From Candidatus Kaiserbacteria bacterium (GTDB lineage: Bacteria > Patescibacteriota > Minisyncoccia > Phycocordibacterales > UBA918), in assembly GCA_031430855.1 (NCBI GenBank), contig JANPCG010000013.1, forward strand, positions 182,893 through 246,892: a DNA stretch of 64,000 nt, given 5' to 3'. Positions 24,419 to 45,163 of this stretch are shown here, piece by piece. Position 1 is the first letter of the stretch; each line of letters opens with the position of its first letter. Below the pieces are notes generated by a model. It did not search any database. It had not been told where the DNA came from and saw only the letters and a program-made list of their open reading frames with translations. The position numbers were made by a program, and so were the translations under genes.

Positions 24419-24514
24419 CCAAAGCCTCTGAATATAACCCACTGCTTTGTCGTGTGTTTATATCTGTCAGTCGCGGTAGGAATCTGCCGCTTCCTCCAGA
24501 ATCTAGTCGCCTGT

Positions 24515-24595
24515 CTTAACAGAAGCTGTACACCTTTTGGAAATCAAAGATTTCTCAAAAGGTCTTGCGACAGTTTCCCAAACTGTCTCACTCGC
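24515..24595 (+). repeat. structured repeat family 1, copy C (in the groEL 3' UTR)
   Basis: CTTAACAGAAGCTGTACA ... AAGGTCTTGCGA-[GACAGTTT ccc AAACTGTC]-TCACTCGC. Lies between the groEL stop and the terminator at 24641. Confidence 0.6.
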
Positions 24596-30762: not shown

Positions 30763-31452
30763 ATGTGCACAAAGAACAAAGTAATTAGATATACTATACC
30801 TATGAAAGTTTTAATACTCATTGTAGCAGCGTTCACGGTAGTGAGTGTATATTTTTATTTCACTATTGCTCCGGCCGATGCGCCTTTCTATACCCCGGTG
30901 CTTCCGCTTGATGAAATTATTGATACCCCAATACCAACTACCTCAGCTCCAGCGCAAATTGCGGTGTTTGAAAATACGGATTACGACTTTACGTTTAGGT
31001 TCCGCATCAAACCATATGGATACTCAGTCTTTGAAAACACCCTTGATCAAAATATCGATATAGGCACCTTGTTTGGGGCAACGTTTATGCGTTCTAATGA
31101 CTACAATGAATCAGTCAAAGCAGCAGCTGCAGGTAACGCGATAGACGGACTCCCTTCAATGTCTGTATATGTGTATAGCGCTTCAAAAGTTCTCGATTTA
31201 GAAGCATGGTTAGCTTCAAACAAAAAGATTACCAATTGTGTTGAGGGTGAAATTACGGCAACGGAACTTGCTGGTCAAGATGCCTCGGTATGTCTGTGGG
31301 AGGGGCTTTATCCGGGAACAACCATCGCTCAGATTAGTGATAATAAAATCTACGTGCTCATTGGTACGAGAGAATCAGCTGAAACACTTGATGGTTATTC
31401 GTATGAGAAAGATTTTAACGAGTTGGTGGAGAGCTTTGAACTCATGCATTAA
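30763..31452 (+). CDS. hypothetical membrane-anchored protein
   Basis: N-terminal TM helix, then an extracellular domain. Confidence 0.4.
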   Translation: MCTKNKVIRYTIPMKVLILIVAAFTVVSVYFYFTIAPADAPFYTPVLPLDEIIDTPIPTTSAPAQIAVFENTDYDFTFRFRIKPYGYSVFENTLDQNIDIGTLFGATFMRSNDYNESVKAAAAGNAIDGLPSMSVYVYSASKVLDLEAWLASNKKITNCVEGEITATELAGQDASVCLWEGLYPGTTIAQISDNKIYVLIGTRESAETLDGYSYEKDFNELVESFELMH

Positions 31453-31477
31453 TCATTTCCCGGACTCATGCGTTCGC

Positions 31478-31612
31478 TGCGGAGAGGGGATTCGAAACTT
31501 ACAGTTTCAGTACCCCAATTGGATACTTTAGTTCGCTTCACTTCTAAAGTCTCTCAATCGGGCTTCGAATCCCCACATGAGTGACATTGAGTCACTCATT
31601 CACCCTCCGCTC
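31478..31612 (+). repeat. tRNA-end-flanked structured repeat family 2, copy Z
   Basis: Left end GCGGAGAGGGGATTCGAA and right end (inverted) CACCCTCCGC both mimic the tRNA-Ser 3' acceptor/T-arm. Internal ACTTACAGTTTCAGTACCCC, GGGCTTCGAATCCCCAC and the hairpin ATGAGTGACATTGAGTCACTCAT. Confidence 0.55.
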
Positions 31613-31630
31613 CTTTATTCCATTCAGTCG

Positions 31631-31717
31631 CGGAGGGTGGGAGATTCGAACTCCCGATCAGATTGCTCCGATACTGCCTTTCCAAGGCAGCGCACTAGGC
31701 CACTATGCGAACCCTCC
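31631..31717 (-). tRNA. tRNA-Ser (anticodon GGA)
   Basis: Reverse complement folds as a cloverleaf: acceptor GGAGGGT/ACCCTCC, anticodon loop cTTGGAAa (GGA), long variable arm, T-arm GGGAGTTCGAATCTCCC. No encoded CCA. Confidence 0.85.
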
Positions 31718-31737
31718 ATGTGATTGGCGGTACACCC

Positions 31738-31899
31738 ACTTCTTACAGAAGCTGTAAATTCTACGAATTCTGTACAGGTTGTCGTTACTGCGTAACAGGC
31801 AACCTCCTGAAACAATATATTATACTGTTTCAGCCTATCACTCTTTTTCCAAAAGAGCTGGCAAGGTCTTGCGAAAGTCTCCCAGACTTTCTCACACTC
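31738..31899 (+). repeat. structured repeat family 1, copy B (longest)
   Basis: CTTCTTACAGAAGCTGTA ... CAGGTTGTCG ... [50-nt insert with perfect hairpin CTGAAACA/TGTTTCAG] ... TTTTTCCAAAAGAGCTGGCAAGGTCTTGCGA-[GAAAGTCT ccc AGACTTTC]-TCACACTC. Confidence 0.6.
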
Positions 31900-31963
31900 T
31901 GCCACCTCTCCGTGGTGGCGCTATCATACATTATAATTGTCACTCTTTAAAATATCTGTATAC

Positions 31964-31995
31964 AAAACAACCACCCGTAATGGGTGGTTGTTTTG
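31964..31995. terminator. bidirectional rho-independent terminator
   Basis: AAAA-CAACCACCC-gtaat-GGGTGGTTG-TTTT. Confidence 0.7.
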
Positions 31996-31996
31996 A

Positions 31997-32137
31997 TTAG
32001 CTAGCAGTTTGTCCGTCGCTTGCTATACAAGCTTTGAGTTCATTGGTTTCGGTCCAGCCACATTGTCCCGTTGCTTGTTGTTCACAGCGAGCCGTTTTAT
32101 AACAAGCATATACCGGTCGGTATTCACAGGTTGACAT
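31997..32137 (-). CDS. candidate small Cys-rich peptide (46 aa)
   Basis: Manual translation gives MSTCEYRPVYACYKTARCEQQATGQCGWTETNELKACIASDGQTAS (5 Cys). The stop abuts the terminator at 31964-31995. Below the ORF-track cutoff. Confidence 0.25.
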   Translation of the reverse strand: MSTCEYRPVYACYKTARCEQQATGQCGWTETNELKACIASDGQTAS

Positions 32138-32218
32138 CAATGGCTCATCGGATGCATCGCTACAAAGCTGTGCACTGCAGCCGCCGATGACACACTGAGT
32201 GGTCCTGGCATCCTCACT

Positions 32219-32677
32219 TCAATTGAGTACCTTTACGTAAAACCCTTCGCTCCCATAGAGGGTGTAGGTGCCATCAGTCAATTCCTGGGCGTAGACTTCA
32301 ATGTCCTTTCCAATCATACTTTCGAGGTCACCGATACTTGGCGAACCAATAATCGTTCCGACAGTCTCTTGGCTCCATCCCATAATAACGGTGACATGTT
32401 TACCAGAAACAGTGACATAACATTCGCCGTCTGAGAAGCATCCCGTATTAACTTCTTCCAGTTTTCCAGTAAATGTATCTGCTTTAATTTTTCCTCCTAC
32501 AGCTGGGGTGTCAGTGGGAGGGAGTCGCCGGGCATTCGTATCAGTTGTTGTATCGGTCGTAGTAGCGGGTTCATTTAGGGGCGTATCAGTCGTTGGTGCA
32601 TTAGCGGGCTCCATCACCACCAATAATACGGCCATAACAACAATTAGAATTGCTCCTCCGGCTAAGATTATTTTCAT
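32219..32677 (-). CDS. secreted or membrane-anchored hypothetical protein
   Basis: N-terminal hydrophobic helix, Thr/Asp-rich linker, C-terminal domain. Confidence 0.4.
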   Translation of the reverse strand: MKIILAGGAILIVVMAVLLVVMEPANAPTTDTPLNEPATTTDTTTDTNARRLPPTDTPAVGGKIKADTFTGKLEEVNTGCFSDGECYVTVSGKHVTVIMGWSQETVGTIIGSPSIGDLESMIGKDIEVYAQELTDGTYTLYGSEGFYVKVLN

Positions 32678-32756
32678 ATGACTAAATTATTTCACACTTG
32701 TTCTCCGGTGACAATACACTACAGAGTTTCTTTTGGTTCGTCCTTGATTTAGCTTA

Positions 32757-33290
32757 GTGGTATACTGCAAGATATTACATATGAAACGACAAGATATCTG
32801 GACGTTAGGCACTACGTTTTTGGTGGGGGTAGTTGCGGGTGGGTATATATACGTAACGGGGTTTAAGCCACAATTTGAAGAGTTTACTGGGCAAACGGCT
32901 GAGGTGTATGAAGATCTGGTTATTGTGGGGGAGCAGTACGGCGGGGATGTTCAGGGTACTTTACCATCTTTTCAGTTGGTGAGTGATGCTACCTTTACCT
33001 ATATTCCAGCTACCGGCCCTAATGAAACGCCTATTCCGCAGCAAGGGTCCTTGCCTCGGGCGTTGTGGAATGACCTAAACGAAGCAATAGGGGGTACTGC
33101 AATGAGTGAAAACGCCGAGCTTGTTACGGTGGCGAATTGCACCTCGTTTGTTGACGGAATTGATTATCGCTATGAAATTACGGTTGATTCAGCTGTGTAT
33201 AGCCTTGACACCTGTGGTACTGACTTCACGAGTACCGAACTACGCCAAGCTCTCGACAAAATCTGGAAATATTTTACAACTCTAGAATAA
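32757..33290 (+). CDS. membrane-anchored hypothetical protein
   Basis: N-terminal TM helix. Confidence 0.4.
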   Translation: MVYCKILHMKRQDIWTLGTTFLVGVVAGGYIYVTGFKPQFEEFTGQTAEVYEDLVIVGEQYGGDVQGTLPSFQLVSDATFTYIPATGPNETPIPQQGSLPRALWNDLNEAIGGTAMSENAELVTVANCTSFVDGIDYRYEITVDSAVYSLDTCGTDFTSTELRQALDKIWKYFTTLE

Positions 33291-33415
33291 TGAAAGAGAT
33301 AAAGCTGTGACTCGTACTATAAAGTGAGGGTATGCCCTCACTTTTGTTCGTTAAAAGTTTATCTTATGTCCTATATACAAAGAACTACTTTGAAAATAAT
33401 AATTTGAAAACGTAT

Positions 33416-34057
33416 ATGAATTCAAAATCTCTGTTAATTGCTATTGCTGCGCTCGCTTTGACTGCTTCAGGAGCGCAGGCTTTTTCTGGAGAAACCCTCA
33501 GGCGGGCTGGATTATCAGAATCTCAACGAGCGGCCTTTGCGGTGGCGCGAGATTTGCGCGAAGAAGGAGATACCGAAGGGGCTCGAAATATATTAGTCGA
33601 AGCCGGAATTGATGAGAAAGTAATAGAACGGGTGCGAAGCGCCATTGCTGATGATACTGTAACAAAACACTCCGGACAGTATGCTGCCTTACAGGCGAAT
33701 GATTATGAATCGTTCAAGGTAGCGGTAGTCGGGTTGCCGCTTGCTGATATCATTACGACTGAGGCTGATTTTGAGCAGTTTAAAGCAGCCCATACCTTAC
33801 GACGAAACGGAAATACCAAGTCAGCTGATGCAATTTTTACCGAACTCGGTATGCTGAAGCAGAATGGAAGGGCACATATAGTTAAAAAGCATTCATGGCA
33901 TGAAGAATTAACTGATGAACAAGCGGCTGCTTTTACCGTGGCTCAAGCTGCTAATGATCGTGATGCAATGGAAGCCATAATGGAAGAAGCGGGAATTGTG
34001 AGGGGAGATCGATCGTCCAGTCCAAAATATCTGCGTGATGGTCGGATTCTTGATTAA
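33416..34057 (+). CDS. secreted helical-repeat protein, hypothetical
   Basis: Signal peptide MNSKSLLIAIAALALTASGAQA. Internal repeat (LSESQRAAFAVA...EAGI / LTDEQAAAFTVA...EAGI). The ORF track extends upstream to 33332. Confidence 0.4.
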   Translation: MNSKSLLIAIAALALTASGAQAFSGETLRRAGLSESQRAAFAVARDLREEGDTEGARNILVEAGIDEKVIERVRSAIADDTVTKHSGQYAALQANDYESFKVAVVGLPLADIITTEADFEQFKAAHTLRRNGNTKSADAIFTELGMLKQNGRAHIVKKHSWHEELTDEQAAAFTVAQAANDRDAMEAIMEEAGIVRGDRSSSPKYLRDGRILD

Positions 34058-34139
34058 TCACACAGTGTAACTTCTTTACCCACCGCGCCCTCTATGTGAG
34101 AGCGGCGCGGTTCGTGGTATTTAGTGCTACACTAGAGCT

Positions 34140-34799
34140 ATGCGATGGACTATATTTTTGTTCTCTATTTGGGTGTTTGTAACAACTTTCTCTACTGCGG
34201 GAGCCTATACTGCGGTGCTTGAGCCGGTGGCTACTCCCTACGAAGTAGTGACAATTAACGACGATCCTATGATTGAGCGGTCGATTTTAGGTGAACTCGA
34301 AGGTTCTCCTGAGATGTTTGAAATAACGTCAGACGTTGAGTTTACCCTTACGGTCGAAATACGAGCACTAATTGAATCAGCTACTTCTCCAGAATTTGCT
34401 GGTATTATCATTCGGCAAAAAGAGAGTCGGGGAGTCGAAGAGGTGGCGCGCTTGTGGGCCACTGATGCAGATTGGCTACGAGTCGTCCATAAAGAAACGG
34501 GACTGCCTTATTACGCTGGTCCTTTCTGGAGTCAAGTGATGCCAGCAGGAACGTACCGGATTGAAGTGAGTACACCCGAAAATAGTGGGAAATATATCCT
34601 CGTTATTGGCAGCCAGAGTGATAGTAATGGCTACCTTGAAAGTATTCGTAATGTAGCTCTGACCTATGAATTTTATGAAGCGTCGACAATCCGGATGTTT
34701 AATTCTCCCTACATACATTACCCGCTGGGAATTCTTCTCCTGATCTTGTTATTAGGAGGAACGTGGTGGTGGCATCGGTCACGAATTTCCCATGCTTAA
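34140..34799 (+). CDS. secreted protein with C-terminal TM anchor, hypothetical
   Basis: Signal peptide and C-terminal hydrophobic helix followed by WWWHRSR. Confidence 0.4.
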   Translation: MRWTIFLFSIWVFVTTFSTAGAYTAVLEPVATPYEVVTINDDPMIERSILGELEGSPEMFEITSDVEFTLTVEIRALIESATSPEFAGIIIRQKESRGVEEVARLWATDADWLRVVHKETGLPYYAGPFWSQVMPAGTYRIEVSTPENSGKYILVIGSQSDSNGYLESIRNVALTYEFYEASTIRMFNSPYIHYPLGILLLILLLGGTWWWHRSRISHA

Positions 34800-34904
34800 A
34801 TTTATTGTGATTGTACTCGCGGCAGTTATCTTTGCCTGGTTCTTCTATCAAGGGTTTAGTGGACAGCCATATAGTTTGCCGGCATTTTTGCAGTTTTAAT
34901 TGAT

Positions 34905-35162
34905 ATGGGCTGGTCTGTTTACATGCTTCGCTGTGCTGATGAGACGATATATACTGGGGTGACTACAGATCTGGAGCGACGGGTTCGTGAACATAACGGG
35001 GAGGTGAAAGGTAAGGGAGCTAAATATACCGCCGTTCGTCAGCCGGTGGTATTGGTATATTCAGAATCGTGTTCTAATCGCAGTGCGGCACAAATGCGAG
35101 AGTATACTTTGAGGAGCAGCAGTCGAATTGAGAAATTACGGCTCATTAAGCAAAAAAGTTAA
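34905..35162 (+). CDS. GIY-YIG domain nuclease (UPF0213 family)
   Basis: WSVYMLRCADETIYTGVTTDLERRVREHN is a GIY-YIG motif. Confidence 0.8.
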   Translation: MGWSVYMLRCADETIYTGVTTDLERRVREHNGEVKGKGAKYTAVRQPVVLVYSESCSNRSAAQMREYTLRSSSRIEKLRLIKQKS

Positions 35163-35212
35163 AAAACGTTCCCCCGCACAGATGTGGCGGGGGAAGTTGC
35201 GTCGTCGTGTGA

Positions 35213-35812
35213 TCAGCCATTGCGGAACAGACGCTTTAGGGTAGGCATGATGTACTGATCGTATGGATCAATGTAGCCAAGAACACTAAGAACAGACTCC
35301 TTTATCTGGTCAGTGAATCGTGGTATCCCAACACCAACTGTCCGTAGCTGGCTCGTAATCTCAGGCCAGTGCGTGAGAAATACTCGTGCCGAGCGTTTGC
35401 GGTGGTAGTTACTCGTCACGATGGTGAGGGTAGTCGGAGTGATACCATGGCTGCGCAGCAGGCCGTGCACCAGACGTGGATGTTCTGACGTCGCGCGGGC
35501 TTCCGGTTCAAGTATGGTTCGGGAGGTGAGTCCATAGATAAACGTATCTAGGATGCGATCGACGTGGTCCTTGGTCTGAATCCCCATGAGAGGATTTGAT
35601 TCCGCCGTCAGCGTCTTGATGTACTCGAGCGCCCGTTCTGCTTCGGACGGGAATTCCTTTCGAGTTTTTCCGCCAGTGATAATAAGACGGCTTGTCGGTG
35701 TCGCTCGGGCGAGCTCTACACCTTTCTTTATCCGCTCAATGAAATCAGCTGTGCAGGTACCGTCAGGGTTCAATTTGTGGCCGAGGACAATAATGATAGG
35801 GATGGCTGGCAT
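35213..35812 (-). CDS. DUF218/YdcF/SanA-family protein
   Basis: IIVLGHKLNPDGT...LIITGG pattern of DUF218 proteins. Confidence 0.55.
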   Translation of the reverse strand: MPAIPIIIVLGHKLNPDGTCTADFIERIKKGVELARATPTSRLIITGGKTRKEFPSEAERALEYIKTLTAESNPLMGIQTKDHVDRILDTFIYGLTSRTILEPEARATSEHPRLVHGLLRSHGITPTTLTIVTSNYHRKRSARVFLTHWPEITSQLRTVGVGIPRFTDQIKESVLSVLGYIDPYDQYIMPTLKRLFRNG

Positions 35813-35911
35813 AAAGGATGTCCTTTTAACGGGTGACGTTTCTTAAAAAATAGTATCACAAAAATTCATTTTGTATAGGTTCTCCTAGTCACAGGATTTT
35901 CTTATTTTTGT

Positions 35912-36502
35912 ATGATACTGCGGTATTATTACAGCATGAAAAGAAAACGCCGCGCGGTAGTCATGTGGGCAGTTATTTTAGTATTGTTAGGCCAAGCGGT
36001 GACGTTATGGTACTTTGGTCAGCCATTTTTTTGTGAATGTGGAGAGATAAAGGTTTGGGAAGGGGAGGTTGCATCAGCGGGAAATTCACAACAGCTCACG
36101 GATTGGTACACGTTTTCACACATCATTCACGGCGTTTTGTTTTTTGGACTACTGTCACTGTTCGCGAGGCGGATACCTTTCGGATATCGACTTGTTATTG
36201 CCCTCGGTATAGAAGTTGCGTGGGAGGTGTTTGAGAACACGCCGTGGTTAATTAATCACTATCGCCAACAAGCGTTGGCGGCTGGGTATACCGGAGATAG
36301 TATTTTTAATTCAATTTCTGATAGTGTCGCGATGATTATTGGCTTTATTCTTGCGTGGCGGACTCCGGTGTGGGTGAGTGTAGCTTTTGTAATTGCCGCT
36401 GAGCTATTCGTGGCCTTTATGATTCGTGATGGTTTGACGCTTAACATCATTAATCTCATCTATCCGTTTGAATTTATTCGGGCGTGGCAAATTGGTGGGT
36501 AG
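35912..36502 (+). CDS. polytopic membrane protein, hypothetical
   Basis: Four to five hydrophobic helices. Confidence 0.35.
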   Translation: MILRYYYSMKRKRRAVVMWAVILVLLGQAVTLWYFGQPFFCECGEIKVWEGEVASAGNSQQLTDWYTFSHIIHGVLFFGLLSLFARRIPFGYRLVIALGIEVAWEVFENTPWLINHYRQQALAAGYTGDSIFNSISDSVAMIIGFILAWRTPVWVSVAFVIAAELFVAFMIRDGLTLNIINLIYPFEFIRAWQIGG

Positions 36503-36503
36503 G

Positions 36504-37403
36504 TTAGTCTCGTACTACTACTTGCGTGCCCAGATCAGCCCAATTGTAGAGTCTCTCCGCATCTCTAGGATTTACATTCACGCACCCGTGAGAGTATGGT
36601 TTACCAAAACTCTGATGCCAGTACGCCCCGTGAATGACAGCTCCTTCTTTCGTAAAGTATAAATTCCACGGTACTCCGGGAAGGTCATAGTATTGTTTAG
36701 AAATTCCCGGGAGCGGTCCTTGCATATATCGCGTTGGTGTTTTCATGTAGACAGTAAATTCTCCGCGTGGGGTAGGAGTGAGTTCAAGCCCGGTCGAAAT
36801 TTTTATATCTAGGTATATTTCTTCACCGTTGTAGGCTCGCAATGATTGTTCTCCACGGTCTACGATAATTCGTTTACTGGTAGGGGGTGTGGTATTCGAA
36901 ATCCACTGTGGTCCTTTTTCAGTAAAGGGAATAGTAAACTCGCTTGCGATATACCAGTCACCGCCAACTCGTTCAGAATAACGAAGGGTCTCGTCAAAGA
37001 GTATCTTGTACCAAAGGAGACCATCTTTTTCGATAGCTGCATCTGTATCAGCGCGTAAGACCACATCATTTCTAAGCTTTGTGACAACTGCTGCTTCGAG
37101 ACCTGGACCGCTGCGGATTCGCACACAGTCTCCATTAAAATTGTAGTCACAACTACTCGTGACCATGATGTATGACAAGCGGGGGTACACTTCTGATGTT
37201 AGGGGAGGTTTTGTACGTGGTGCAGTGCTAGTGCTCGAGGTCGCTATCGCCGGAGGTTCTGATTGAATTACCGAGACCACTTTTTTAGTTTGAGCTTTTG
37301 GTGTGTCACTGATGATTGTCCATAGAATTAAGGTAATCAAACCAAGGATGAAAAAAATAATAAGTGCTACTAGGTGCCGGGAATAATACTCAAGTCGTGT
37401 CAT
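36504..37403 (-). CDS. L,D-transpeptidase (YkuD fold)
   Basis: Catalytic AIHGAYWHQSFGKPYSHGCVNV motif. N-terminal TM anchor. Confidence 0.8.
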   Translation of the reverse strand: MTRLEYYSRHLVALIIFFILGLITLILWTIISDTPKAQTKKVVSVIQSEPPAIATSSTSTAPRTKPPLTSEVYPRLSYIMVTSSCDYNFNGDCVRIRSGPGLEAAVVTKLRNDVVLRADTDAAIEKDGLLWYKILFDETLRYSERVGGDWYIASEFTIPFTEKGPQWISNTTPPTSKRIIVDRGEQSLRAYNGEEIYLDIKISTGLELTPTPRGEFTVYMKTPTRYMQGPLPGISKQYYDLPGVPWNLYFTKEGAVIHGAYWHQSFGKPYSHGCVNVNPRDAERLYNWADLGTQVVVRD

Positions 37404-37490
37404 ATCCCTTAAGTATATAGTGGTGGATATAAAAAACGCAGCAATTGACCGTGTTTAAAAAAACGTATGGTGCTTAGTTAAAAGAGTAAG

Positions 37491-38078
37491 ATGGTATACT
37501 TGAAACCTATGTTTCGTAAATATCAAAATATTGTAGCTGTAGGTAGTATTGTGGTTGCAGCCTTCGTCACCCTCACTGCACTGACTCCGTCAGCATTTGC
37601 TCAAGCTACCACTACTGCTACTACCACAGCTAGTTCTACCCCGGTTGGTATTACATGGGAAAATCAGACTGAGGTAGAAAAGCGAGTCCGGGAGCTGTTC
37701 GCTTTCGCGCCTGTAATGATCGAGATTGCTCGTTGTGAATCAAAGTTCCGTCAGTTTACTGATAATGGTAATGTATTGCGGGGCGGTGGAAATGCGGGCA
37801 TGATTGGCGTCTTCCAATTTTATGAAGCAATTCATGCTACCCCTGCACTTGCCCTTGGATTTGATATTACTACTACTGAAGGGAATCTTGGGTATGCACG
37901 GCATCTCTATACCGAATCAGGCACTCGACCCTGGGCCTCATGTGTGCCTGATGTGATACCTATCGCCCCAGTTATGTCTGCGGCAAATAAGGAGTTGCAA
38001 ATTAAACTTCTGACTAAGGTCGTTGCGTTATTACAAGATTTGTTGAAAATGGAGTTAGCAAAACAGAAAGGGAATTAA
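37491..38078 (+). CDS. secreted hypothetical protein
   Basis: Signal peptide and a Thr/Ala-rich linker. Confidence 0.4.
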   Translation: MVYLKPMFRKYQNIVAVGSIVVAAFVTLTALTPSAFAQATTTATTTASSTPVGITWENQTEVEKRVRELFAFAPVMIEIARCESKFRQFTDNGNVLRGGGNAGMIGVFQFYEAIHATPALALGFDITTTEGNLGYARHLYTESGTRPWASCVPDVIPIAPVMSAANKELQIKLLTKVVALLQDLLKMELAKQKGN

Positions 38079-38261
38079 AATTTTATATGAAAAGTCACCT
38101 GTTGCAGAGCTGCCGGCGGGTGATTCGATACTCGACTCTTAAAAGGTGAAATAAAGTTATAGGAGAGATTTCTTGCTTATAAAATTTTTAATAAAATCAT
38201 GAAGCCGCCTGGCAGGGTTACTGCGAGGCGGCTTTGAAGTGAGAGAAGGATCTTGCTATTT

Positions 38262-38792
38262 CTATGCCGAGGCTTTAGCAATCCTTGCTTGTTCTTTGGG
38301 GGTAGCCAGGTCCGTAGACTTGGTAAGGTCGAGGAAGATTGTCCCTTCGATGTGGTCATATTCGTGGAGACATACACGAGCAGCGAGATCGTCGAGGGTT
38401 TCCTCTTCCTGATGGCCATTCCGATTGGTAAACGAGATGGTTAGCGACTTGGGACGTTCAACTCTCCCAAAGATGTCCGGGATACTCAGACAACTTTCCC
38501 AAAGCGTTTCCGTCTCGTCCGAGTACCCAACGATGGTCGGGTTGATAATGGCCTTCGGATCCATCACGAGAGCGTTGGGGTAGCGAGGAGTCGGCCTCGA
38601 AGAGATGATGAAAAGCCGGAGCGGCTGATACACCTGCGGCGCTGCGATGCCGAGACCTTCGGCATCTTGACACGTATACATCATGTCATCGATAAGAGTC
38701 TGGATGTCAGGATCGTGGATGTCTTCGACTTCCTTCGCTTTTCCGCGCAGGATAGGGTGACCAAGCTGGCTGATTTGGAGTAAAGTGGGCAT
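38262..38792 (-). CDS. def: peptide deformylase (copy 1, in a GC-rich patch)
   Basis: GLGIAAPQV, ESCLSIP and HEYDHIEG motifs. Local GC about 55% versus about 45% for the window. Confidence 0.85.
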   Translation of the reverse strand: MPTLLQISQLGHPILRGKAKEVEDIHDPDIQTLIDDMMYTCQDAEGLGIAAPQVYQPLRLFIISSRPTPRYPNALVMDPKAIINPTIVGYSDETETLWESCLSIPDIFGRVERPKSLTISFTNRNGHQEEETLDDLAARVCLHEYDHIEGTIFLDLTKSTDLATPKEQARIAKASA

Positions 38793-39037
38793 GTTGCCCT
38801 CCTCTCAAGGTTTGTGTTTACACTCGTAAGAAAGATCAAACTGATACGTTTCAGTCATATTTGATAATAAAACTAAAAATCGTATCAGTAAAGGGTTGCT
38901 ATAGAAGCTCTTAAAAATATAGCCATTGCTCTTTTTGATATGGTTACTATTTCTTTACATGGAATTTAATCTGTGTACACTACGTAGTGGAATCAGTAAC
39001 TGCTGGTTCTTGAACCGAAAACAATGGAGGTACGAAC

Positions 39038-39574
39038 ATGCCGTGGGATCAAGCGACGTTTGGGGCAGTGAGTGCGGGTTTGCGGCGTAGTGCTGCGGAA
39101 GGGGACTTCGTTCCCTACGAGTGGAATGCTGGCATTCAACACAACAAAGACGGGGGCTACTCGATCTACGGCTGCGGCTTGGGCCAGATTGCTTGGTTTG
39201 CAGCTGTCTTCAAAGGCGGGGCGAAATATGCACGTCAGATGCTGCCTGTCGGCTCTGGGCAGACCGAGGTGAATGTTGTGCTCAAGGCCGTCGGACTGAC
39301 GCGGGCCGAGATCAAGCAGCTGGACCCGCAAGCGCTCTGGTCGCGTTTTGACTACGAACTTGAAGATGCCTATCGTGACCGCAATGATGACCCTGAGCAC
39401 TTCATCGCCATGTCGGGGTGGCTGGCCGAGTTCTTCATCAATGAACTCGAAAGTGTTCCGGTTGTGCCCGAATCGACATTGTCGGTTTCGGTTCCCGCCA
39501 CCAGGTCGTCGATCAAGCTGAAAGACTTCTTTCCGGCATTGTTCGGAAAACAGTCGGTTCCAGAACTGGTCTGA
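39038..39574 (+). CDS. hypothetical protein encoded in a GC-rich (~60%) patch
   Basis: Strong GGAGG Shine-Dalgarno 8 nt upstream. No known family. GC is far above the window average. Confidence 0.45.
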   Translation: MPWDQATFGAVSAGLRRSAAEGDFVPYEWNAGIQHNKDGGYSIYGCGLGQIAWFAAVFKGGAKYARQMLPVGSGQTEVNVVLKAVGLTRAEIKQLDPQALWSRFDYELEDAYRDRNDDPEHFIAMSGWLAEFFINELESVPVVPESTLSVSVPATRSSIKLKDFFPALFGKQSVPELV

Positions 39575-39622
39575 ATCCAGTCAGGAGACAATTCGACCAG
39601 TCTACGGTCGGAAAAAAGCAGA

Positions 39623-39651
39623 AGGAGCGCTCACACTCGGGCGCTCCTTTT
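39623..39651 (+). terminator. rho-independent terminator
   Basis: GGAGCGC-loop-GCGCTCC followed by TTTTT. Confidence 0.7.
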
Positions 39652-39760
39652 TATTATGCTCTGTTTTTTGTCTTTAAAATTTTATATTTTTCTAACACTA
39701 CTACATGGAGTCATGTGGTAGTGCTACACGTTGTCGTGCCTAAGCATAAGTAAAATTACC

Positions 39761-39994
39761 TTATGGTGCAGGAGTTGGAGTTGGAGTTGGGGTAGGAGTG
39801 GGAGTTGGAGTGGGAACTGTGACGTTAATCTCGGTTTTGTCTGAATTTGCTGGGTCGGACGCGGAACCTAACATGCCAGTTTGATAGAGAACGATACCTC
39901 CCACAATGAGCACTGCGATGATGATTACCATGGCGGTTCCTCCCATGCTGCTGTCATCAGAATTCGGTGTATTTGTAATAATTGTGTCAGCCAT
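39761..39994 (-). CDS. small membrane-anchored protein with (Thr-Pro)n tail
   Basis: One TM helix, then TPTPTPTPTPTPTPAP. Confidence 0.4.
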   Translation of the reverse strand: MADTIITNTPNSDDSSMGGTAMVIIIAVLIVGGIVLYQTGMLGSASDPANSDKTEINVTVPTPTPTPTPTPTPTPAP

Positions 39995-40177
39995 AAACGT
40001 ATGAATTAAATTTGTAAATTTGAAAAAATAATTTCTCTATAAATATGCCGTTTTAATGACAAATATGTGACAAAATAGTATAAGCAAAACCCTGTGTGGG
40101 ATTTTTACTTCCCGTTCCTGTGTCTCAATTTACTCATGTATCACAGGTTTTGAAAAACTCAAAAATAAGTTTTGCAT

Positions 40178-40861
40178 CTACTCGGTATCAGTAGCGCGAG
40201 CGAGGGGTTCATTTTTAGTATCCTTAGCCATTGTTTCGTTTTCAGTAATTACTTCATCAGTAACTGCCTCGACGACTGAATCGACAACTGGTATGTGGAT
40301 TCGACTGATGTATAACGAACAGAGAACAACGGCAATGAAGCCCCCAAACGCATCGAGCATCAAATCAATCATTGTGTCGTCTAAGCTCCCGACTTGCATA
40401 TTAGTGCCCAAGAAATTATCAAGGCCATATTCAATAATTTCCCACATTCCACCGATGCCCATACTGAATAAGAAGGCGAAGAGGAGTATAAGTGCACGGG
40501 GGAGTTGTAATTTATTATGTACGTAGTAAATGTATAACAAAAGAAAGCCGATGAATCCAAATGCTATAGCTGAGATGAGATGGAGAAAAGCATCGTACCA
40601 ATGCCAGCGGTCATATAGTCCGCCGAACTGACCGAGAAAAACAGAAATAAAAATAAAAGTAATGACAAAATATATAAAAAAGGCTGGGACGTGAACGTTG
40701 TGAATACCTTTAAATAAATGGGGGATCAGTGAAACAGCGAGCATAAGTGCTCCAGCTACGATCATTACAATATTATCAGTGTATATGGCGTAACTAGTAA
40801 GGCCCACTAAGAGAATGTTTACTAAGCCAAGCTGGATATAATTTTTGTGGAGTTTAAACAT
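40178..40861 (-). CDS. polytopic membrane protein, hypothetical
   Basis: Six hydrophobic helices. Confidence 0.4.
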   Translation of the reverse strand: MFKLHKNYIQLGLVNILLVGLTSYAIYTDNIVMIVAGALMLAVSLIPHLFKGIHNVHVPAFFIYFVITFIFISVFLGQFGGLYDRWHWYDAFLHLISAIAFGFIGFLLLYIYYVHNKLQLPRALILLFAFLFSMGIGGMWEIIEYGLDNFLGTNMQVGSLDDTMIDLMLDAFGGFIAVVLCSLYISRIHIPVVDSVVEAVTDEVITENETMAKDTKNEPLARATDTE

Positions 40862-40991
40862 ACATAGTTGTAAATTGATTCATTTAAATACTAAAAACTG
40901 AATTTAGAATAGGTATCAAGTCGCGTCTACCCAAATTCGCTTAGCGAGGAAGAAAAGGATGCTGTGTTCTGAATGGAATGGATGATGGATG

Positions 40992-41294
40992 CTAGAATAT
41001 TCCAATCCCAAAAGCGAGTACGATTATGGTTATAAATAAGAGAACGACACTGCCAAGGAATAAGTAATCCGCCACCCGCTCATACGTGATTGCTCGTCGA
41101 GAAAGTTGGGAACGGATTGAGAGATATGAAAGAAAAATACTCAACAGAAGTAGTAGTGAAATAGCCGCCATCGAACGCATGATTTCAATATTCTCATTGT
41201 TATCGGTGATATGAATACCGGTAATGATAAAAAAACATATACCCAAGAGATTGGCTGATGTGGTAAGTATGTGGGGGAGTTTTGAGTCGTTCAT
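40992..41294 (-). CDS. small polytopic membrane protein, hypothetical
   Basis: Three hydrophobic helices. Confidence 0.35.
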   Translation of the reverse strand: MNDSKLPHILTTSANLLGICFFIITGIHITDNNENIEIMRSMAAISLLLLLSIFLSYLSIRSQLSRRAITYERVADYLFLGSVVLLFITIIVLAFGIGIF

Positions 41295-41406
41295 GGTGAA
41301 GTATGAAGTATACCTTATTTGGTGTTATGTTTGTTCTCAAACTGGATTATTTTTAGTGAGAAAGAGTTGAAAACGGTTATTTAAAAAACCGCCCTCCAAC
41401 GGTCTT

Positions 41407-41667
41407 TTATAAAGACTGTTGAGGCGGTAAGATTCCCATCTCTTTTGCTGCGGCGCGCATTGCTTCACTAACCTTATTGAGTGCTTCTGCGCGCTCGACC
41501 AGCATTTCGAAAAATGATTCGAATACCGCTGGGCCGAATCCTTCGATAGCGAGAAGTACGCTGGCTGCAATAGCGAACTTGCGCGTGTCTTCGTCCGAAG
41601 ATTTCTTTCCGTCTTCGATCAAAGCAGCGAAGCGGTTCTTCAAAGCTTGGTCCATTTGTTTCCTCAC
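41407..41667 (-). CDS. hypothetical small helical protein
   Basis: Preceded by TTGACA-N17-TACTGT on the minus strand and followed by the terminator hairpin CCGCCCTCCAACGGTCTTT/AAAGACTGTTGAGGCGG. Confidence 0.4.
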   Translation of the reverse strand: MRKQMDQALKNRFAALIEDGKKSSDEDTRKFAIAASVLLAIEGFGPAVFESFFEMLVERAEALNKVSEAMRAAAKEMGILPPQQSL

Positions 41668-41774
41668 TTCATGTTCTGTTCACTTGAAACAGTAGCACAG
41701 TATATGTGCTATGTCAATATTTGGTGTCATAAATTGGGCTGGTTCAGAACTCTTTGTAAATAAATAGAAAATGC

Positions 41775-41871
41775 TATTTAAAAAGAAAACCGCCCTCCGT
41801 CGTAACGAAGTTTGGTTTTCGTTTCCACCCCGCCTAGGACTTTCCACCCCGCCTAGGACTCTCCTAGGCGG
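41775..41871 (-). ncRNA. candidate sRNA with its own promoter and terminator
   Basis: Minus-strand -35 TTGACA (41900-41905), 17-bp spacer, -10 TATTAA (41877-41882). The transcript starts in the 9-bp palindrome CCGCCTAGG-actct-CCTAGGCGG, continues through a tandem repeat (GGTGGAAAGTCCTAGGCGG x2) and ends in GGAGGGCGGTTTTCTTTTT. Confidence 0.35.
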
Positions 41872-41876
41872 AGTCT

Positions 41877-41905
41877 TTAATAGTACAGTATATGTGCTAT
41901 GTCAA
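41877..41905 (-). promoter_or_regulatory. sigma70-like promoter (TTGACA-17-TATTAA)
   Basis: Read directly from the minus strand. A near-identical module is at 41693-41720 upstream of ORF 41407..41667. Confidence 0.45.
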
Positions 41906-41912
41906 TCCCTTG

Positions 41913-42043
41913 CTCCCGGGGCAGGAATCGAAGCTTAACGCTTCAGTACATCCTGTCGCTATTTTGTTCGCAAGGTCCAAAATAAGCAGGCAGGGTCTTC
42001 GAATCCTGACACGAGTGACGTTTAGTCACTCGTTTCCGGGGAG
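41913..42043 (+). repeat. tRNA-end-flanked structured repeat family 2, copy X
   Basis: CTCCCGGGGCAGGAATCGAAGCTTAACGCTTCAGTACATCC ... GCAAGGTCC ... GGGTCTTCGAATCCTGACACGAGTGACGTTTAGTCACTCGTTTCCGGGGAG, followed by the terminator-like hairpin CCACACTTGCGTGTGG. Confidence 0.55.
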
Positions 42044-42583
42044 TATATAAAAGTAAAGACCACACTTGCGTGTGGCCTAAACTTTTATATGCTCCAATTG
42101 TTCTGGTCGATTAGAACTTTTTATATGCACAATGATAGCAGGGTGATGGTGCCTTTTTTAAATGTAACACGTCCCAGTAACTAACCGCCAACACAAGGCT
42201 CGCCTAGCGAGTATTCTTTTTCGCATTCTATCTCTACCTGTGATACTTTCCAGATATACATAGCAGAAATAGCGACACAAAGTATAAGAGCGAAGTACAG
42301 AAACTTTTTCATTAAAGAAATTGTACCATGTCTAATTGCGTACATATGATGTCAATGAAATATCAATGTGGTGTATGTGTTCCGTAAGCTGGACGGGTCC
42401 AGAACTCTTGGTAAATAGATTTAGACAAGCAAATTGGTCACAAATTCAAAGAGAATTGGATTGGAGTGGGATTTTGTATTTTTACCAAAGGCAAGTACTT
42501 CAGAACTTGGGTGTATAAAAAAGAAAAACCGCCGCTTCGTTATGAGACGAAGCGTTGGCTTTTCGTCCCACCGAAGTGGCGGT

Positions 42584-43153
42584 TTACACGTTCACCCAAG
42601 GAGCGGTTGCAAGTATCCACGCCTGTCGCAAATCATCGACAGGCATCAGGTCGCGTAACTTACCCACCGGGTAAAGAGGGCGGTCGTTGGGGTCTTCTGA
42701 TAGAACGATGTGCGCCTCCCCGATATCGACGATGAACGACTTTTCTAATACGTCAAAGCGTTTGATATTCGCCCCGACTACTTGTGGGCTGAACTCGTCC
42801 CACTTCTGGCCTGAGAAGTTGGACATCAGTGGTCTGTGAATGTTGTATTGTTCGGGATGTGCCCCTAGACACTGTCCGTTGACTTTCAACCAGCAAGCGG
42901 CTCCCCATAGACAGAGGATGAGCCATTCTCCAGACTGGCTTTCATCAGCTTCGAGGTTGAAGCCGACGAAGCCAGGACCACCCTGTCCATACGTTCCACA
43001 GGAGGGAGAAAACTCGATAACTTTTCGGCCAATGAGGCTGCCGAAGTCGATATTTCTCCTGAGTGATACATCATTATCGCCGTATGCTCGAATGATCTTG
43101 CTTTCTTTTTTCACGATCGCCTCCGTTTCAAAAGTGTTAAATCCAAAAAACAC
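42584..43153 (-). CDS. hypothetical protein
   Basis: No known family. Followed by a strong terminator (CGCTTCGT..ACGAAGCG nested in AAACCGCC..GGCGGTTT, then T-run). Confidence 0.4.
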   Translation of the reverse strand: MFFGFNTFETEAIVKKESKIIRAYGDNDVSLRRNIDFGSLIGRKVIEFSPSCGTYGQGGPGFVGFNLEADESQSGEWLILCLWGAACWLKVNGQCLGAHPEQYNIHRPLMSNFSGQKWDEFSPQVVGANIKRFDVLEKSFIVDIGEAHIVLSEDPNDRPLYPVGKLRDLMPVDDLRQAWILATAPWVNV

Positions 43154-43275
43154 TATACATTAGATTTGTATAGTGTCAATGTTTTTCTCCCTGGGCAGGA
43201 GTTTCTCCCTCGACTAATTTTCTAGCGAAAATTGTCTAGGCACCGACTCGCTGTTGTTGCACAACATGCTCCGTC

Positions 43276-43318
43276 GTTCGAATCCTGACGAAATGTGCGC
43301 AGGCACATTTCTCCCAGG
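43276..43318 (+). repeat. family 2 partial copy W (right half only)
   Basis: CGTTCGAATCCTGACGAA-[AAATGTGC gcag GCACATTT]-CTCCCAGG. Confidence 0.4.
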
Positions 43319-43362
43319 TCGCTCGTACAGAAAACACCAGACAAAAGATGTCTGGTGTTTTC

Positions 43363-43492
43363 TTTACTCGCTTCCCGGGCAGGATTCGAAGCTTACAGCT
43401 TCGGTACACCTTGCGGATTTTCTTTCGCAGGCTCAAGAAAAATCTCGCAAGGTCTTCGAATCCTGACGAACGTGACATTTAGTCACGTTCTC
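43363..43492 (+). repeat. tRNA-end-flanked structured repeat family 2, copy Y
   Basis: The left end CCCGGGCAGGATTCGAA is identical to 17 nt of the adjacent tRNA-Asn 3' region. Internal GCTTACAGCTTCGGTACACC, CGCAAGGTCTTCGAATCCTGAC and hairpin GAACGTGACATTTAGTCACGTTC. The right end CTCCCGGGGAGCC is the inverted tRNA 3' end. Confidence 0.55.
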
Positions 43493-43502
43493 CCGGGGAG
43501 CC

Positions 43503-43533
43503 AAAAAATCAAAAACCACACTTGCGTGTGGTT
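43503..43533 (-). terminator. rho-independent terminator of tRNA-Asn
   Basis: CCACAC-ttgc-GTGTGG followed (on the minus strand) by TTTTTGATTTTTT. Confidence 0.6.
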
Positions 43534-43547
43534 AAAGATTTTTACGG

Positions 43548-43619
43548 CTCCCCGGGCAGGATTCGAACCTGCGACCAATCGATTAACAGTCGACTGCTCT
43601 ACCGCTGAGCTACCGAGGA
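43548..43619 (-). tRNA. tRNA-Asn (anticodon GUU)
   Basis: Reverse complement TCCTCGG-TA-GCTC-AGCGGTA-GAGC-A-GTCGA-cTGTTAa-TCGAT-TGGTC-GCAGG-TTCGAAT-CCTGC-CCGGGGA-G. Canonical 72-nt cloverleaf, no encoded CCA. Confidence 0.85.
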
Positions 43620-43897
43620 AGGTGGCTACTACTTTTACCTCATCTACACTTTAGTTTCGAATGACTCGATGCGCAGTCGACTTCGTCGACCTTCGTACCG
43701 AAGCTGTCCACTCATTCGTCTCTTTCATTCGCTTCGCTCTGAAAGATATTGAATGAGTCTTGAGAAGTGACATTGAGTCACTTCTCACTAAGCTACCTAA
43801 GGAAGGTGGCTACTTACTTACCAGAAGTTGGTAAGTTGTTGTATTGTACAGAAAAATCGCTAAAACTCAAATTTTCTAAGGGGAAGTCAGTTAGGTA

Positions 43898-44359
43898 CTA
43901 CTTTGTATCGGAATTGGTGCAGATGGCCTTAATTACTTTGAGGAAACCATACAGTTGGGTTGGACTGGTACCCTTTAGCCATTGTCGACTTTCGGCGCGG
44001 AGGAGCGGTTCAACCGTGGTAACGATTTTTTTTCCAGCACTCGTGAGGGTAGAGAGTCGTACTCGTTTATCAACGGTGTCGGGGGTAACACTGACATATC
44101 CAAGCTTAACTAAGGCCTCAACTCGTTTGGTGGTAAAAGGAGCTTCAACCCCTAGCTGATCAGAAAGATCAATCAATCGACAAGGTTTTTCGTTTGTTTC
44201 ATAGAGAATACCTAAAATTGCCCAGTCTACGCTGGTAATAGAGTAGGGGGTCAGTACTGTATCAGTATGGTCCTTAAGTACTCGATGCGCTCGAGCTAAT
44301 TGAAGACCAACTTCATAGGTAGCGGGCGCTTTGATTTTAGGAAATATGCTCTTTATCAT
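43898..44359 (-). CDS. MarR-family transcriptional regulator
   Basis: Winged-helix region LTPYSITSVDWAILGILYE...CRLIDLSDQLGVEAPFTTKRVEALVKLGYV. Confidence 0.75.
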   Translation of the reverse strand: MIKSIFPKIKAPATYEVGLQLARAHRVLKDHTDTVLTPYSITSVDWAILGILYETNEKPCRLIDLSDQLGVEAPFTTKRVEALVKLGYVSVTPDTVDKRVRLSTLTSAGKKIVTTVEPLLRAESRQWLKGTSPTQLYGFLKVIKAICTNSDTK

Positions 44360-44518
44360 GTGAATGTGTTTAGCTTAGATGGTAGGGGAGTTTCTGTAAA
44401 GAGTGGTAAGCAGTGATGCAGCCGCTATTCAGGGGTGTCTCTTGCAAAATTTTACTAGTCATTTATGATGTATATATACTTAACTAGATTAAGTATATAT
44501 TTACTATAACTATACCAT

Positions 44519-45163
44519 ATGAATAATTATGTTATTGCCGGAATTGCTGTTGTGTTATTAATAGGAGGATTTTTGTTGATAAACAACATGAACGACACTG
44601 ACGATACCGTGGCACAAACTGCCGCTATGAATGCTGAAGCTGAGCGCATGGCTGCAGAGAAGAAGCGGAATGATACAAAGATGGTTGACGCTCAGCCGGC
44701 TGCCCCTGTTGGAGTAGAGGTTGGTGGCGCTATGATGGTGCCAAGTCTTGATATTGTTGATAACGCTGCCAAGGCTTCAAACGTAACGACAGTCGTAGCT
44801 GCAGTGAAAGCGGCGGGCTTAGTCGATACCCTGAAGGGTCCTGGTCCATTTACCGTATTTGCACCAACCAATGATGCGTTCGCGAAGCTTCCTGCTGGTA
44901 CTGTCGATACGTTACTTAAACCCAGCATGAAGGCGGACCTCACCAGTATCTTGACCTATCACGTTGTGTCTGGTCGGTATACTGCGGCTGATCTTAAAGA
45001 TGGTATGACACTTAAAACGGTTAACGGTGCTACCCTAAAGATCACTGTTGTTGGCGGAAAAGTTATGATTAACGGTAATGCTATGGTTGAAACAGCTGAT
45101 GTGATTTCGAGTAACGGTGTCACACACGTGATTGACACTGTCTTGATGCCACCAAAAGCGTAA
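44519..45163 (+). CDS. fasciclin (FAS1) domain protein, membrane anchored
   Basis: [22 protein letters not shown] and LTYHVV are FAS1 signatures. N-terminal TM helix. Confidence 0.8.

Follow-up and report, generated by a model that had tools for sequence, protein, structure and literature searches.

Repeat copies at the tRNA loci of the window

The window analyzed here, a 64,000-nt stretch of contig JANPCG010000013.1 from a Candidatus Kaiserbacteria bacterium, contains a dispersed, hairpin-rich repeat element that adjoins its genes for tRNA-Ser and tRNA-Asn. An earlier note on this DNA, made from the letters alone, had placed copies of the element, called Z, X, W, Y, and V, at 31478-31612, 41913-42043, 43276-43318, 43363-43492, and 47935-48035, and the sequences at these positions were indeed as described. 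With a covariance model built from aligned relatives (R1, whose E values are rough), 10 significant copies were found in the window (E = 4e-18 to 1e-5), together with weak partial matches at 31841-31897 and 43251-43317. The description as a dense repeat was thus borne out, whereas the count of about five to eight copies was too low, since R1 gives at least 10. Model orientation corresponds to the plus strand for copies Z, X, Y, and V.

The gene for tRNA-Ser(GGA) lies on the minus strand at 31630-31717 (ARAGORN; Rfam RF00005, 53.9 bits) and has elements antisense to it on both sides. Copy Z (31478-31612, core at 31493-31605, plus strand) was found by R1 with 55.3 bits (E = 2.3e-10) and folds with a z score of -5.7. 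Its arms, GGGGATTCGAA/TTCGAATCCCC and GCGGAG../CACCCTCCGC, make up the inverted repeats I3, I6, and I7, and the right arm CACCCTCCGC repeats the 3' end of tRNA-Ser, 19 nt away, in inverted form with 10/10 matches. On the 5' side of the tRNA gene, a core copy at 31755-31835 (plus strand; 33.9 bits, E = 1.2e-5) is accompanied by a partial core copy at 31841-31897 (plus strand; 17.3 bits, E = 0.057; repeat D8), which is made up of GGTCTTGCGA, the hairpin AAGTCT-CCC-AGACTT, and TCTCAC.

The gene for tRNA-Asn(GTT) lies on the minus strand at 43546-43619 (ARAGORN; Rfam, 71.7 bits). Copy Y (43363-43502, core at 43387-43495, plus strand; 57.8 bits, E = 6.5e-11; fold z = -8.2) has the arms CTTCCCGGG/CCCGGGGAG and CAGGATTCGAAG/CTTCGAATCCTG (inverted repeats I3, I4, I6, and I14), and its left arm is identical at 17 of 17 positions to the complement of the tRNA-Asn 3' end (CCCGGGCAGGATTCGAA), in agreement with the 17 shared nucleotides reported before. 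An orthologue of Y with 84% identity is present in the Ca. Kaiserbacteria contig L017. The tRNA and Y have a bidirectional intrinsic terminator in common (43504-43543, with terminator-like sites on both strands; I2, I3), and this terminator is the center of a palindrome reaching into the 3' strand of the tRNA acceptor. Indeed, the tRNA-Asn 3' end, the terminator, and the right arm of Y form one long palindrome (I2, I3, I6). The best canonical copy of the window lies 5' of tRNA-Asn at 43689-43790 (plus strand; 90.3 bits, E = 4.3e-18). Right after it, positions 43790-43812 duplicate 43608-43630, that is, nucleotides 1 to 13 of tRNA-Asn plus its leader, as had been noticed earlier, and beyond this copy the promoter scan gave a minus-strand promoter-like site at 43870-43843.

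Two further units lie upstream of Y. Copy X (41912-42095 with its terminator, core at 41929-42039, plus strand; 45.3 bits, E = 3.6e-8) has tRNA-Asn-like arms and its own terminator palindrome (42040-42095, I1), and no intact tRNA follows it. Since X plus terminator is an approximately 77% paralogue of Y plus terminator (repeats D2, D3, and D5), the X/Y pair is in part a local segmental duplication. A 26-nt repeat pair with 96% identity (41693-41718 and 41881-41906) is found just upstream of X. Unit W had been taken for a 43-nt partial copy; it is a degenerate full unit at about 43188-43320 (plus strand), to which R1 responds only weakly at 43251-43317 (11.6 bits, E = 1; fold z = -4.8). It consists of the left arm CTCCCTGGGCAGGAG, then TTCGAATCCTGAC, the hairpin GAAATGTGC-GCAG-GCACATTTC, and the right arm TCCCAGG (inverted repeats I5 and I11); another repeat module takes the place of its first two hairpins. 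A palindrome with 31-nt arms and a terminator-like hairpin at its center (43313-43379; I1, 81% complementary) links W, at its right arm, with the left arm of Y. The replacing module (43232-43290; in minus-strand reading GGA(T/C)TCGAACG(A/G)CGGAGC, a hairpin, and GCGAGTCG) recurs beside elements in other genomes (loci L025 and L035).

The remaining copies lie elsewhere in the window. Copy V (47937-48027, plus strand; 86.8 bits, E = 2.6e-17) is a canonical core of the type previously called family 1 and lacks the tRNA-like ends that had been ascribed to it. A canonical copy with a CCC loop in its third hairpin (24510-24593, plus strand; 44.5 bits, E = 5.7e-8) is located between the groEL stop codon and the groEL terminator (the upstream open reading frame [ORF] matches Cpn60_TCP1), and another at 17607-17715 (minus strand; 60.7 bits, E = 1.5e-11) lies between the stop codon of RNase J, whose domains are found in the upstream ORF, and a terminator. 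Two tandem copies occupy 6985-7074 and 7080-7169 of the minus strand (68.6 and 42.7 bits). The hairpins at 17613-17633 and 43762-43786, formerly regarded as isolated, turned out to be the third hairpin of full R1 copies. Because R1 finds all of them, families 1 and 2 and the supposedly isolated hairpins are one family, as the suggestion of a single superfamily had anticipated.

The core is maintained as a single-strand fold

According to the consensus from an alignment of 39 relatives, the core is about 90 to 110 nt long and has three hairpins linked by near-invariant single-stranded motifs. In model orientation it reads (ttc) NNNN-C-TTACA-G-NNNN, CTGTMCAC, a long variable hairpin, GTCTTGCGA, a 7- to 10-bp hairpin, and TCTCAC(cc). 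The loop TTACA of hairpin 1 is invariant, with CTGTMCAC directly after the hairpin; hairpin 2, long and variable, precedes GTCTTGCGA, and hairpin 3 precedes TCTCAC. The limits of the unit are set by the points where conservation drops to background, on the 5' side 9 nt before the TTACA loop and on the 3' side 2 nt past TCTCAC. An outer stem closing the whole core was rejected as a general feature, since it was found in only about 15 to 25% of copies.

Relatives were collected in two ways. One genome per species was scanned for GTCTT-N(4-16)-GTGACRTTKRGTCAC, which returned 85 loci; about 55 of these clearly carry the three-hairpin element, nearly all of them in metagenome-assembled genomes (MAGs) of Patescibacteria, mostly Ca. 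Kaiserbacteria, Paceibacterota, Nomurabacteria, Saccharibacteria, and MAGs labelled "Patescibacteria group." A few loci bear the labels of Patiriisocius, Azotimanducaceae, and Acidimicrobiales MAGs, for which a binning error is possible. The family is thus patchy but broad across Patescibacteria genomes. The second sample, independent of the first, came from metagenome contigs and was collected with a seed pattern that left the third hairpin unconstrained; its counts are among the matches listed.

The stems covary in every sample. In a MAFFT alignment of 39 sequences, 17 of 27 pairs showed compensatory change. The genome loci yielded 107 R1 copies in 448 kb, in which 95.3% of the cells were paired, compared with 68.5% after shuffling and at most 42.5% with slid partners, and all 27 pairs showed compensatory change. 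For the metagenome sample the corresponding values, from 118 copies in 100 of 120 fetched loci, were 94.6% paired versus 67.7% shuffled, again with compensatory change in 27 of 27 pairs, and the third hairpin, left open by the seed pattern, covaried freely there. Alignments fitted with R1 lean toward the model, but the MAFFT alignment gives the same picture. The covariation that the earlier note wanted checked was thus found for the hairpins, and, since the stems covary in all samples, the core fold is selected in a single-stranded state. These sequence comparisons show that the core is maintained as a single-strand fold, be it RNA or single-stranded DNA. The strand could not be assigned from the counts of G-U versus A-C pairs, and this approach was dropped: at 68:58 the counts do not single out a strand, and one frequent U-G pair is a subfamily marker.

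All copies of the window fold far better than shuffled sequences on both strands (z = -4.8 to -8.6); in the window, GTGAC-N5-GTCAC occurs 6 times where 0.04 occurrences are expected (0 of 100 shuffles), and TTCGAATCC 7 times where 0.76 are expected. A different multi-copy repeat with the same GTGAC-ATTT(A/G)-GTCAC hairpin, which R1 does not match, was seen at loci L007, L012, L016, L059, and L072 (uncultured bacterium UMGS1001); this hairpin may be a module shared between repeat families.

With at least 225 copies beyond the window (107 in genome loci plus 118 in the metagenome sample), the repeat is not merely a product of local duplication. No element was matched by Rfam 15 at the gathering threshold in the window and 32 loci, nor at E ≤ 5 over 18 kb of the window, and over window positions 31000-49000 the tRNA model, even at E ≤ 5, and ARAGORN returned only the two real tRNAs. 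Because of these negative results the elements are not tRNA pseudogenes, and their absence from Rfam, stated before, held up. No account of such repeats in Patescibacteria was found in the literature searched, which is not proof of novelty.

As to abundance, the element occurs about once per 6 kb in the window and about once more per 10 to 30 kb in the fetched loci, a density that is biased upward because these loci were picked for containing an element. A genome might perhaps hold tens to a hundred or more copies, a figure extrapolated from the loci.

Copies beside tRNA and 5S genes and their surroundings

The family is strongly enriched beside tRNA and 5S genes. An element was found within 250 nt of 21 of 34 tRNAs in the genome loci and of 33 of 63 in the metagenome loci, among the matches listed; the close tie to tRNA genes claimed in the earlier note thus held up in both samples. 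The copies next to tRNAs are mostly antisense to them, with antisense:same ratios of 22:5 and 27:7 in the two samples (49:12 in total, about 80% antisense). A similar bias exists toward protein-coding genes: where both flanking genes are co-oriented, the model orientation is antisense rather than sense in 41:24 cases, and in 28:11 cases in the second sample (69:35 in total; these counts rest on crude ORF calls). Because of this bias with respect to tRNAs and genes, the reverse complement of the model is the strand that is usually co-transcribed with the neighbors; for Z, X, Y, and V this is the minus strand.

The family-2 copies Z, X, Y, and W have one layout. In the sense of the tRNA it comprises the tRNA 3' end (T1), a bidirectional terminator, the inverted acceptor 3' strand, hairpin 3, the inverted T-stem and T-loop, hairpin 2, the TTACA hairpin, and a direct copy from the T-loop to the 3' end (T2), and it is often trailed by another terminator and another unit. 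T2 is identical to the adjacent tRNA over 15 to 21 nt. In the window this layout is found with Asn and Ser tRNAs, at other loci with Tyr, Trp, Leu, Arg, Gln, Gly, Pro, Phe, and Val tRNAs. The arm on the 5' side complements the tRNA 3' end exactly and is not a copy of the 5' strand of the tRNA; at L052, for example, tRNA-Tyr starts with GCGTCGG, whereas the arm of the unit is GTGCGCCGGAG. A protein gene in L023 also has the pattern of target, inverted target, element, and target at its 3' end, and the related L046 has an empty site. Since the arms match each adjacent tRNA and the same pattern is seen at a protein gene, they are copied from whatever adjoins the element; the arms are therefore neither a fixed part of the element nor a tRNA pseudogene. 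The description of the elements as "built from tRNA ends" holds for the arms of family 2, which are taken from the 3' end of the adjacent tRNA, but not for the conserved core: the core is not detectably tRNA-like, and copies of tRNA ends are limited to the arms of the family-2 subset. Most members of the family lie far from any tRNA and have no tRNA-like arms.

Several loci show signs of rearrangement. Downstream of tRNA-Pro in L080, the long-hairpin loop of a family-2 copy contains a canonical copy, and other repeats nest in the long-hairpin loop in L043 and L046. The nested sequence in the latter two (L043:7001-7172 and L046:4991-5153) is a long palindromic element (CTTTCAAGTGAACGAGCGAAGTAAAAAT..ATTTTTACTTCCGAGTGAACGCTGAAAG) that represents a further repeat family. 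In the Kaiserbacteria loci L026 (3570-4012) and L077 (360-900), an intact 5S gene and its terminator are followed by a second 5S copy, which is split by two elements of opposite orientation at nucleotides 23/24 and 44-46. In L026 the 5S pieces and the intact gene show 100% identity, pointing to gene conversion or a recent origin. That the split 5S copy is spliced like an intron is unlikely, given that the two inserts have opposite orientations and that their removal leaves a 1-nt discrepancy. Insertions of other kinds were seen in 23S rRNA, namely one of 891 nt in L026 and, in L065, a group I intron (4235-4453) and an unrelated 100-nt insertion near the 5' end. In L030 (4191-4382, minus strand) an element lies between nucleotides ~24 to 36 and 37 to 74 of a tRNA-Ile, and its long-hairpin loop holds a complete tRNA-Ile of the 16S-23S spacer. 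In L040 two elements upstream of an intact tRNA-Glu are flanked by tRNA-Glu fragments. Altogether, extra tRNA or 5S fragments were found at the borders of 25 of 117 elements, with breakpoints in the T-loop, the anticodon loop, the D-loop, and loop C of 5S.

Related genomes differ in their copies. The window is syntenic with L017 (84% identity) and with the Patescibacteria contig L061 (~70%). Copies X and W are missing from the syntenic locus in L017, and 7080-7169 is missing from L061, which keeps an orthologue of 6985-7074; the empty site in L046 compared with L023 is a further difference of this kind. Nesting, split tRNA and 5S copies, and such differences between related genomes show that the elements spread or rearrange locally.

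The copies are intergenic and adjoin diverse housekeeping genes, for example, those for EF-G, ClpP, GroEL, FtsZ, and SecDF. Scans of two sets of neighboring ORFs (113 and 122) revealed no family that recurs more than three times among the 25 commonest listed per set, and, within the same limits, no mobile-element family, TnpA, TnpB, or integrase was enriched in the 235 ORFs. Likewise, no transposase, integrase, reverse transcriptase, TnpB, or Cas gene was found among the approximately 40 window ORFs scanned, which are ordinary housekeeping genes (RNase J, GroEL, MreB, BipA, two def genes, fmt, and a sigma factor), and neither TnpB nor IscB nor a Cas effector adjoins the elements, whose neighbors are housekeeping genes.

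We also tested the copies themselves for hallmarks of mobile elements. The core has no terminal inverted repeats, its ends ..CTTACAG.. and ..TCTCAC not being mutually inverted; inverted arms are confined to the family-2 subset, where they vary according to the neighboring tRNA. There was no fixed-length target duplication (the best combination of k-mer and offset was found in 10 of 65 copies, versus 2.9 expected), and the longer flank repeats, where present, vary between about 13 and 60 nt. In both respects the copies differ from a DDE-type MITE, with which they share their large number and their presence/absence differences between relatives. No conserved 4- to 5-nt target was seen 5' of the left end, where conservation is at background from position -9 upstream, with a weak TTC at -8 to -6. 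The outer hairpins are close to the ends of the unit, hairpin 1 being no more than about 8 nt from the 5' limit and hairpin 3 no more than about 8 nt from the 3' limit. Variable tails follow TCTCAC, and where these match anything, it is the immediately adjacent flank, in either sense. Judged by GC skew, there is no replication-strand bias, with 34 copies on the G-rich and 40 on the C-rich strand; the skew is positive over the whole window (1-64000), and the plus strand is therefore leading-type throughout.

Several other candidates were set aside. An "autonomous" version with its 5' and 3' halves parted by an ORF was not found in the loci. A phage vehicle was rejected because the core was absent from viral contigs, in which five matches to the hairpin are due to chance. 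A cyanobacterial origin or a homing guide of a CRISPR-associated transposon, considered in view of RNase J, fasciclin, and the tie to tRNAs, was rejected as well, since the window is syntenic at 84% identity with a Ca. Kaiserbacteria contig and the window ORF scans contained no Cas12k or Tns genes. tigRNAs sit in arrays beside Tas genes and, according to the TIGR-Tas account, are 36 nt long, unlike the element. Group I introns of tRNAs are hundreds of nucleotides long, and those of Patescibacteria are inserted at position 35/36 according to the published description, which does not fit the elements.

Some features of the window unrelated to the repeat may be mentioned here. Two peptide deformylase paralogues (38262-38792 and 47309-47890) and a formyltransferase (46301-47212) lie within 10 kb. 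The ORF at 51464-53044 combines an N-terminal HTH_3 with an EPSP-synthase/MurA-type domain, an unusual fusion if the ORF call is correct, and two neighboring ORFs at 617-3336 match the MATCAP (tyrosine carboxypeptidase) family, whereas a 639-aa ORF at 48881-50800 has no Pfam match. A 12-nt tandem repeat is found at 39764-39811 and a 188-nt repeat pair with 79% identity at 63258-63445 and 63813-64000.

Nature of the family

We read Z, X, Y, W, and V as members of a non-coding, non-autonomous, structure-bearing dispersed repeat that colonizes the ends of stable-RNA genes in Patescibacteria (the candidate phyla radiation), and assign this reading a probability of about 0.5. The best-supported general classification is that of a new family of the REP/ERIC/BOX/Correia/RPE-like kind. 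The arms would then not be a targeting device but by-products of templated copying. Such copying could take place by fold-back or palindrome extension at the terminator, where the hairpin-rich element adjoins the terminator of the tRNA; alternatively, it may make use of microhomology between the palindromic TTCGAA of the T-loop and the element's own TTCGCAAGAC. The tRNA would be left intact, and the core would end up inside a tRNA-like acceptor/T-arm helix. The flanks of tRNA genes are probably safe sites in a compact genome, tolerated because RNase P and 3' processing would remove leaders and trailers. The copy at 43689-43790, located between the intact tRNA-Asn and the promoter-like site (43870-43843) with the old tRNA start, is an example of such a tolerated flank. 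A host function would not be needed to explain the data.

Several observations weigh against this reading. Since the scanned neighboring and window ORFs yielded no partner such as a transposase, recombinase, or reverse transcriptase, the word "mobile" rests on the distribution of the copies. The orthologue of 6985-7074 in L061 keeps its stems via multiple paired changes at about 30% DNA divergence, and the single-stranded motifs are almost invariant across classes. This conservation of stems and motifs agrees with a function selected by the host no less well than with selfish DNA, although the same picture could result from gene conversion between copies. The orientation bias with respect to genes and tRNAs points to selection or a directional mechanism. 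Moreover, that the arms arose by fold-back is a model, and no intermediate was observed.

A serious rival, which we regard as less likely, is a host function. The elements would be non-coding RNA modules whose reverse complement is co-transcribed with tRNAs or mRNAs and has a role in processing, stability, or insulation; the family-2 units might fold into a cloverleaf-like tRNA mimic, with an acceptor helix and three arms, for the tRNA-processing enzymes. Near-invariant single-stranded motifs alongside covarying helices speak for this rival, and so do the compensatory changes conserved between 6985-7074 and L061, the significant co-orientation with tRNAs (49:12) and flanking genes (69:35), and the location of 17607-17715 and 24510-24593 between stop codon and terminator. 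The family-2 units, furthermore, finish in a tRNA-like 3' end plus terminator; Y and its L017 orthologue read ...GGGGAGCCA. However, about one-third of the copies have the opposite orientation, and nested copies and split pseudogene copies, including one 5S copy with two elements in opposite orientation, count against an RNA module. The arms copy whichever tRNA adjoins, which looks like an event at the DNA level, and the G-U versus A-C counts favor neither strand.

A bolder version of the templated-copying idea, rather unlikely in our view, is that the family is a new kind of mobile element that spreads by templated copying and not by a classical transposase. Such an element, hairpin-rich and possibly tRNA-derived, would enter the T-, anticodon-, and D-loops of tRNAs and loop C of 5S, and the adjoining gene end would be copied both as a direct and as an inverted repeat, through fold-back DNA synthesis or via an RNA intermediate, with the live gene remaining intact. 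If this were true, the copier would be a tRNA/5S-chimeric element resembling short interspersed nuclear elements (SINEs) in a reduced bacterial genome.

Integration by a tyrosine integrase appears improbable. The units would be integrase remnants in the T-loop of tRNAs, the direct 3'-end copy being the displaced attachment site, and would accumulate in tandem. Crossovers in the T-loop and the anticodon loop are typical of tRNA-targeting integrases, and the direct repeats of 17 to 21 nt, which extend from the T-loop to the 3' end, lie downstream of the tRNA in fixed orientation and are sometimes tandem; the region between X and Y is, in addition, variable in comparison with L017. However, the units are non-coding, about 150 to 180 bp long, and without integrase or cargo (the scans done listed no Phage_integrase match), the same tRNA end is always present in inverted form as well, the same layout is found at a protein-gene end and at 5S genes, and most family members are nowhere near a tRNA.

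Similarly improbable is dependence on an IS200/IS605-type (Y1 HUH) transposase, with the elements as its passengers, or a role as omega-RNA-like scaffolds for a protein of the TnpB/IscB type encoded elsewhere. The earlier note had likened the elements, among others, to IS200/IS605-dependent passengers, and hairpins near both ends in the absence of terminal inverted repeats and target duplication would agree with it, as would, for passenger or guide, the variable tail after TCTCAC that matches nearby sequence in some copies. Dependence on IS200/IS605 or RAYT was not supported: a conserved target tetranucleotide is lacking, there is no leading/lagging bias (34:40), the two end hairpins are dissimilar, TnpA, TnpB, and integrase were not enriched in the 235 neighboring ORFs, and none was among the window ORFs scanned. 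The matching tails, in turn, appear to be flank duplications in either sense and not guides. That the copies are diverged tRNA pseudogenes or tRNA-derived fragments without family identity is very improbable: the arms are copies of tRNA 3' ends and the topology with arms is cloverleaf-like, but there was no tRNA covariance match even at E ≤ 5 and no ARAGORN call, most copies lack tRNA-like arms, and the 5' arm is an inverted 3' end and not a tRNA 5' end. The integrase, IS200/IS605 or guide-RNA, and pseudogene readings thus each fail at least one defining test.

Among known repeats, REP/BIME, ERIC, BOX, Correia, and Rickettsia palindromic elements (RPE) are the small structured intergenic repeats of bacteria. 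Like these, the element is a non-coding, multi-copy, intergenic sequence of about 100 nt with stable hairpins that is found in either orientation, sometimes tandem or nested, and is co-transcribed with its neighbors without having a gene of its own. Unlike them, it has three hairpins with near-invariant linkers, neither a GTAG-type REP signature nor terminal inverted repeats, and is common to several classes of Patescibacteria, where it shows a strong link to tRNA and 5S genes, the ends of which are copied. With the miniature elements derived from IS200/IS605 (PATEs) and REPIN/RAYT systems it shares hairpins near the ends and the lack of inverted terminal repeats and target duplication, but it has no conserved target motif or strand bias, its end hairpins are dissimilar, and no cognate Y1 transposase was seen in the neighboring and window ORFs scanned. 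The 178-bp rtT repeats downstream of E. coli tyrT carry a tRNA 3' segment; like these and like the attachment-site duplications of genomic islands, the family-2 units repeat the tRNA 3' end directly on the downstream side of the gene, at times in tandem, whereas an inverted copy of the end and a conserved three-hairpin core dispersed genome-wide are added and integrase and cargo are absent. In compact eukaryotic genomes, Ty3 and the Dictyostelium TRE elements target tRNA genes, and SINEs are derived from tRNA or 5S. The element resembles them in its enrichment in tRNA flanks as safe sites and in its chimeras with tRNA and 5S sequence, but its host is a bacterium, and neither reverse transcriptase nor polymerase III logic is known for it. 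The class of small structured intergenic repeats is therefore familiar, whereas the family itself is apparently undescribed; what is unfamiliar is the three-hairpin core with invariant linkers, its spread over classes of Patescibacteria, and the systematic manner in which it is coupled to copies of tRNA and 5S ends.

The genomes of Patescibacteria, about 1 Mb in size, were thought to be poor in repetitive or mobile DNA. An element that flanks about half of the sampled tRNA genes is a significant, unannotated component of such genomes, and the tRNA and 5S loci are reshaped by it through the duplication of gene ends, the interruption of extra copies, and long palindromes at terminators. Errors of annotation, such as spurious ORFs and tRNA fragments that are missed or falsely called, probably arise from it, and the covariance model R1 would permit its systematic annotation. 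Either the host has a new RNA module in this element, or selfish DNA has a new route to persistence in a minimal genome.

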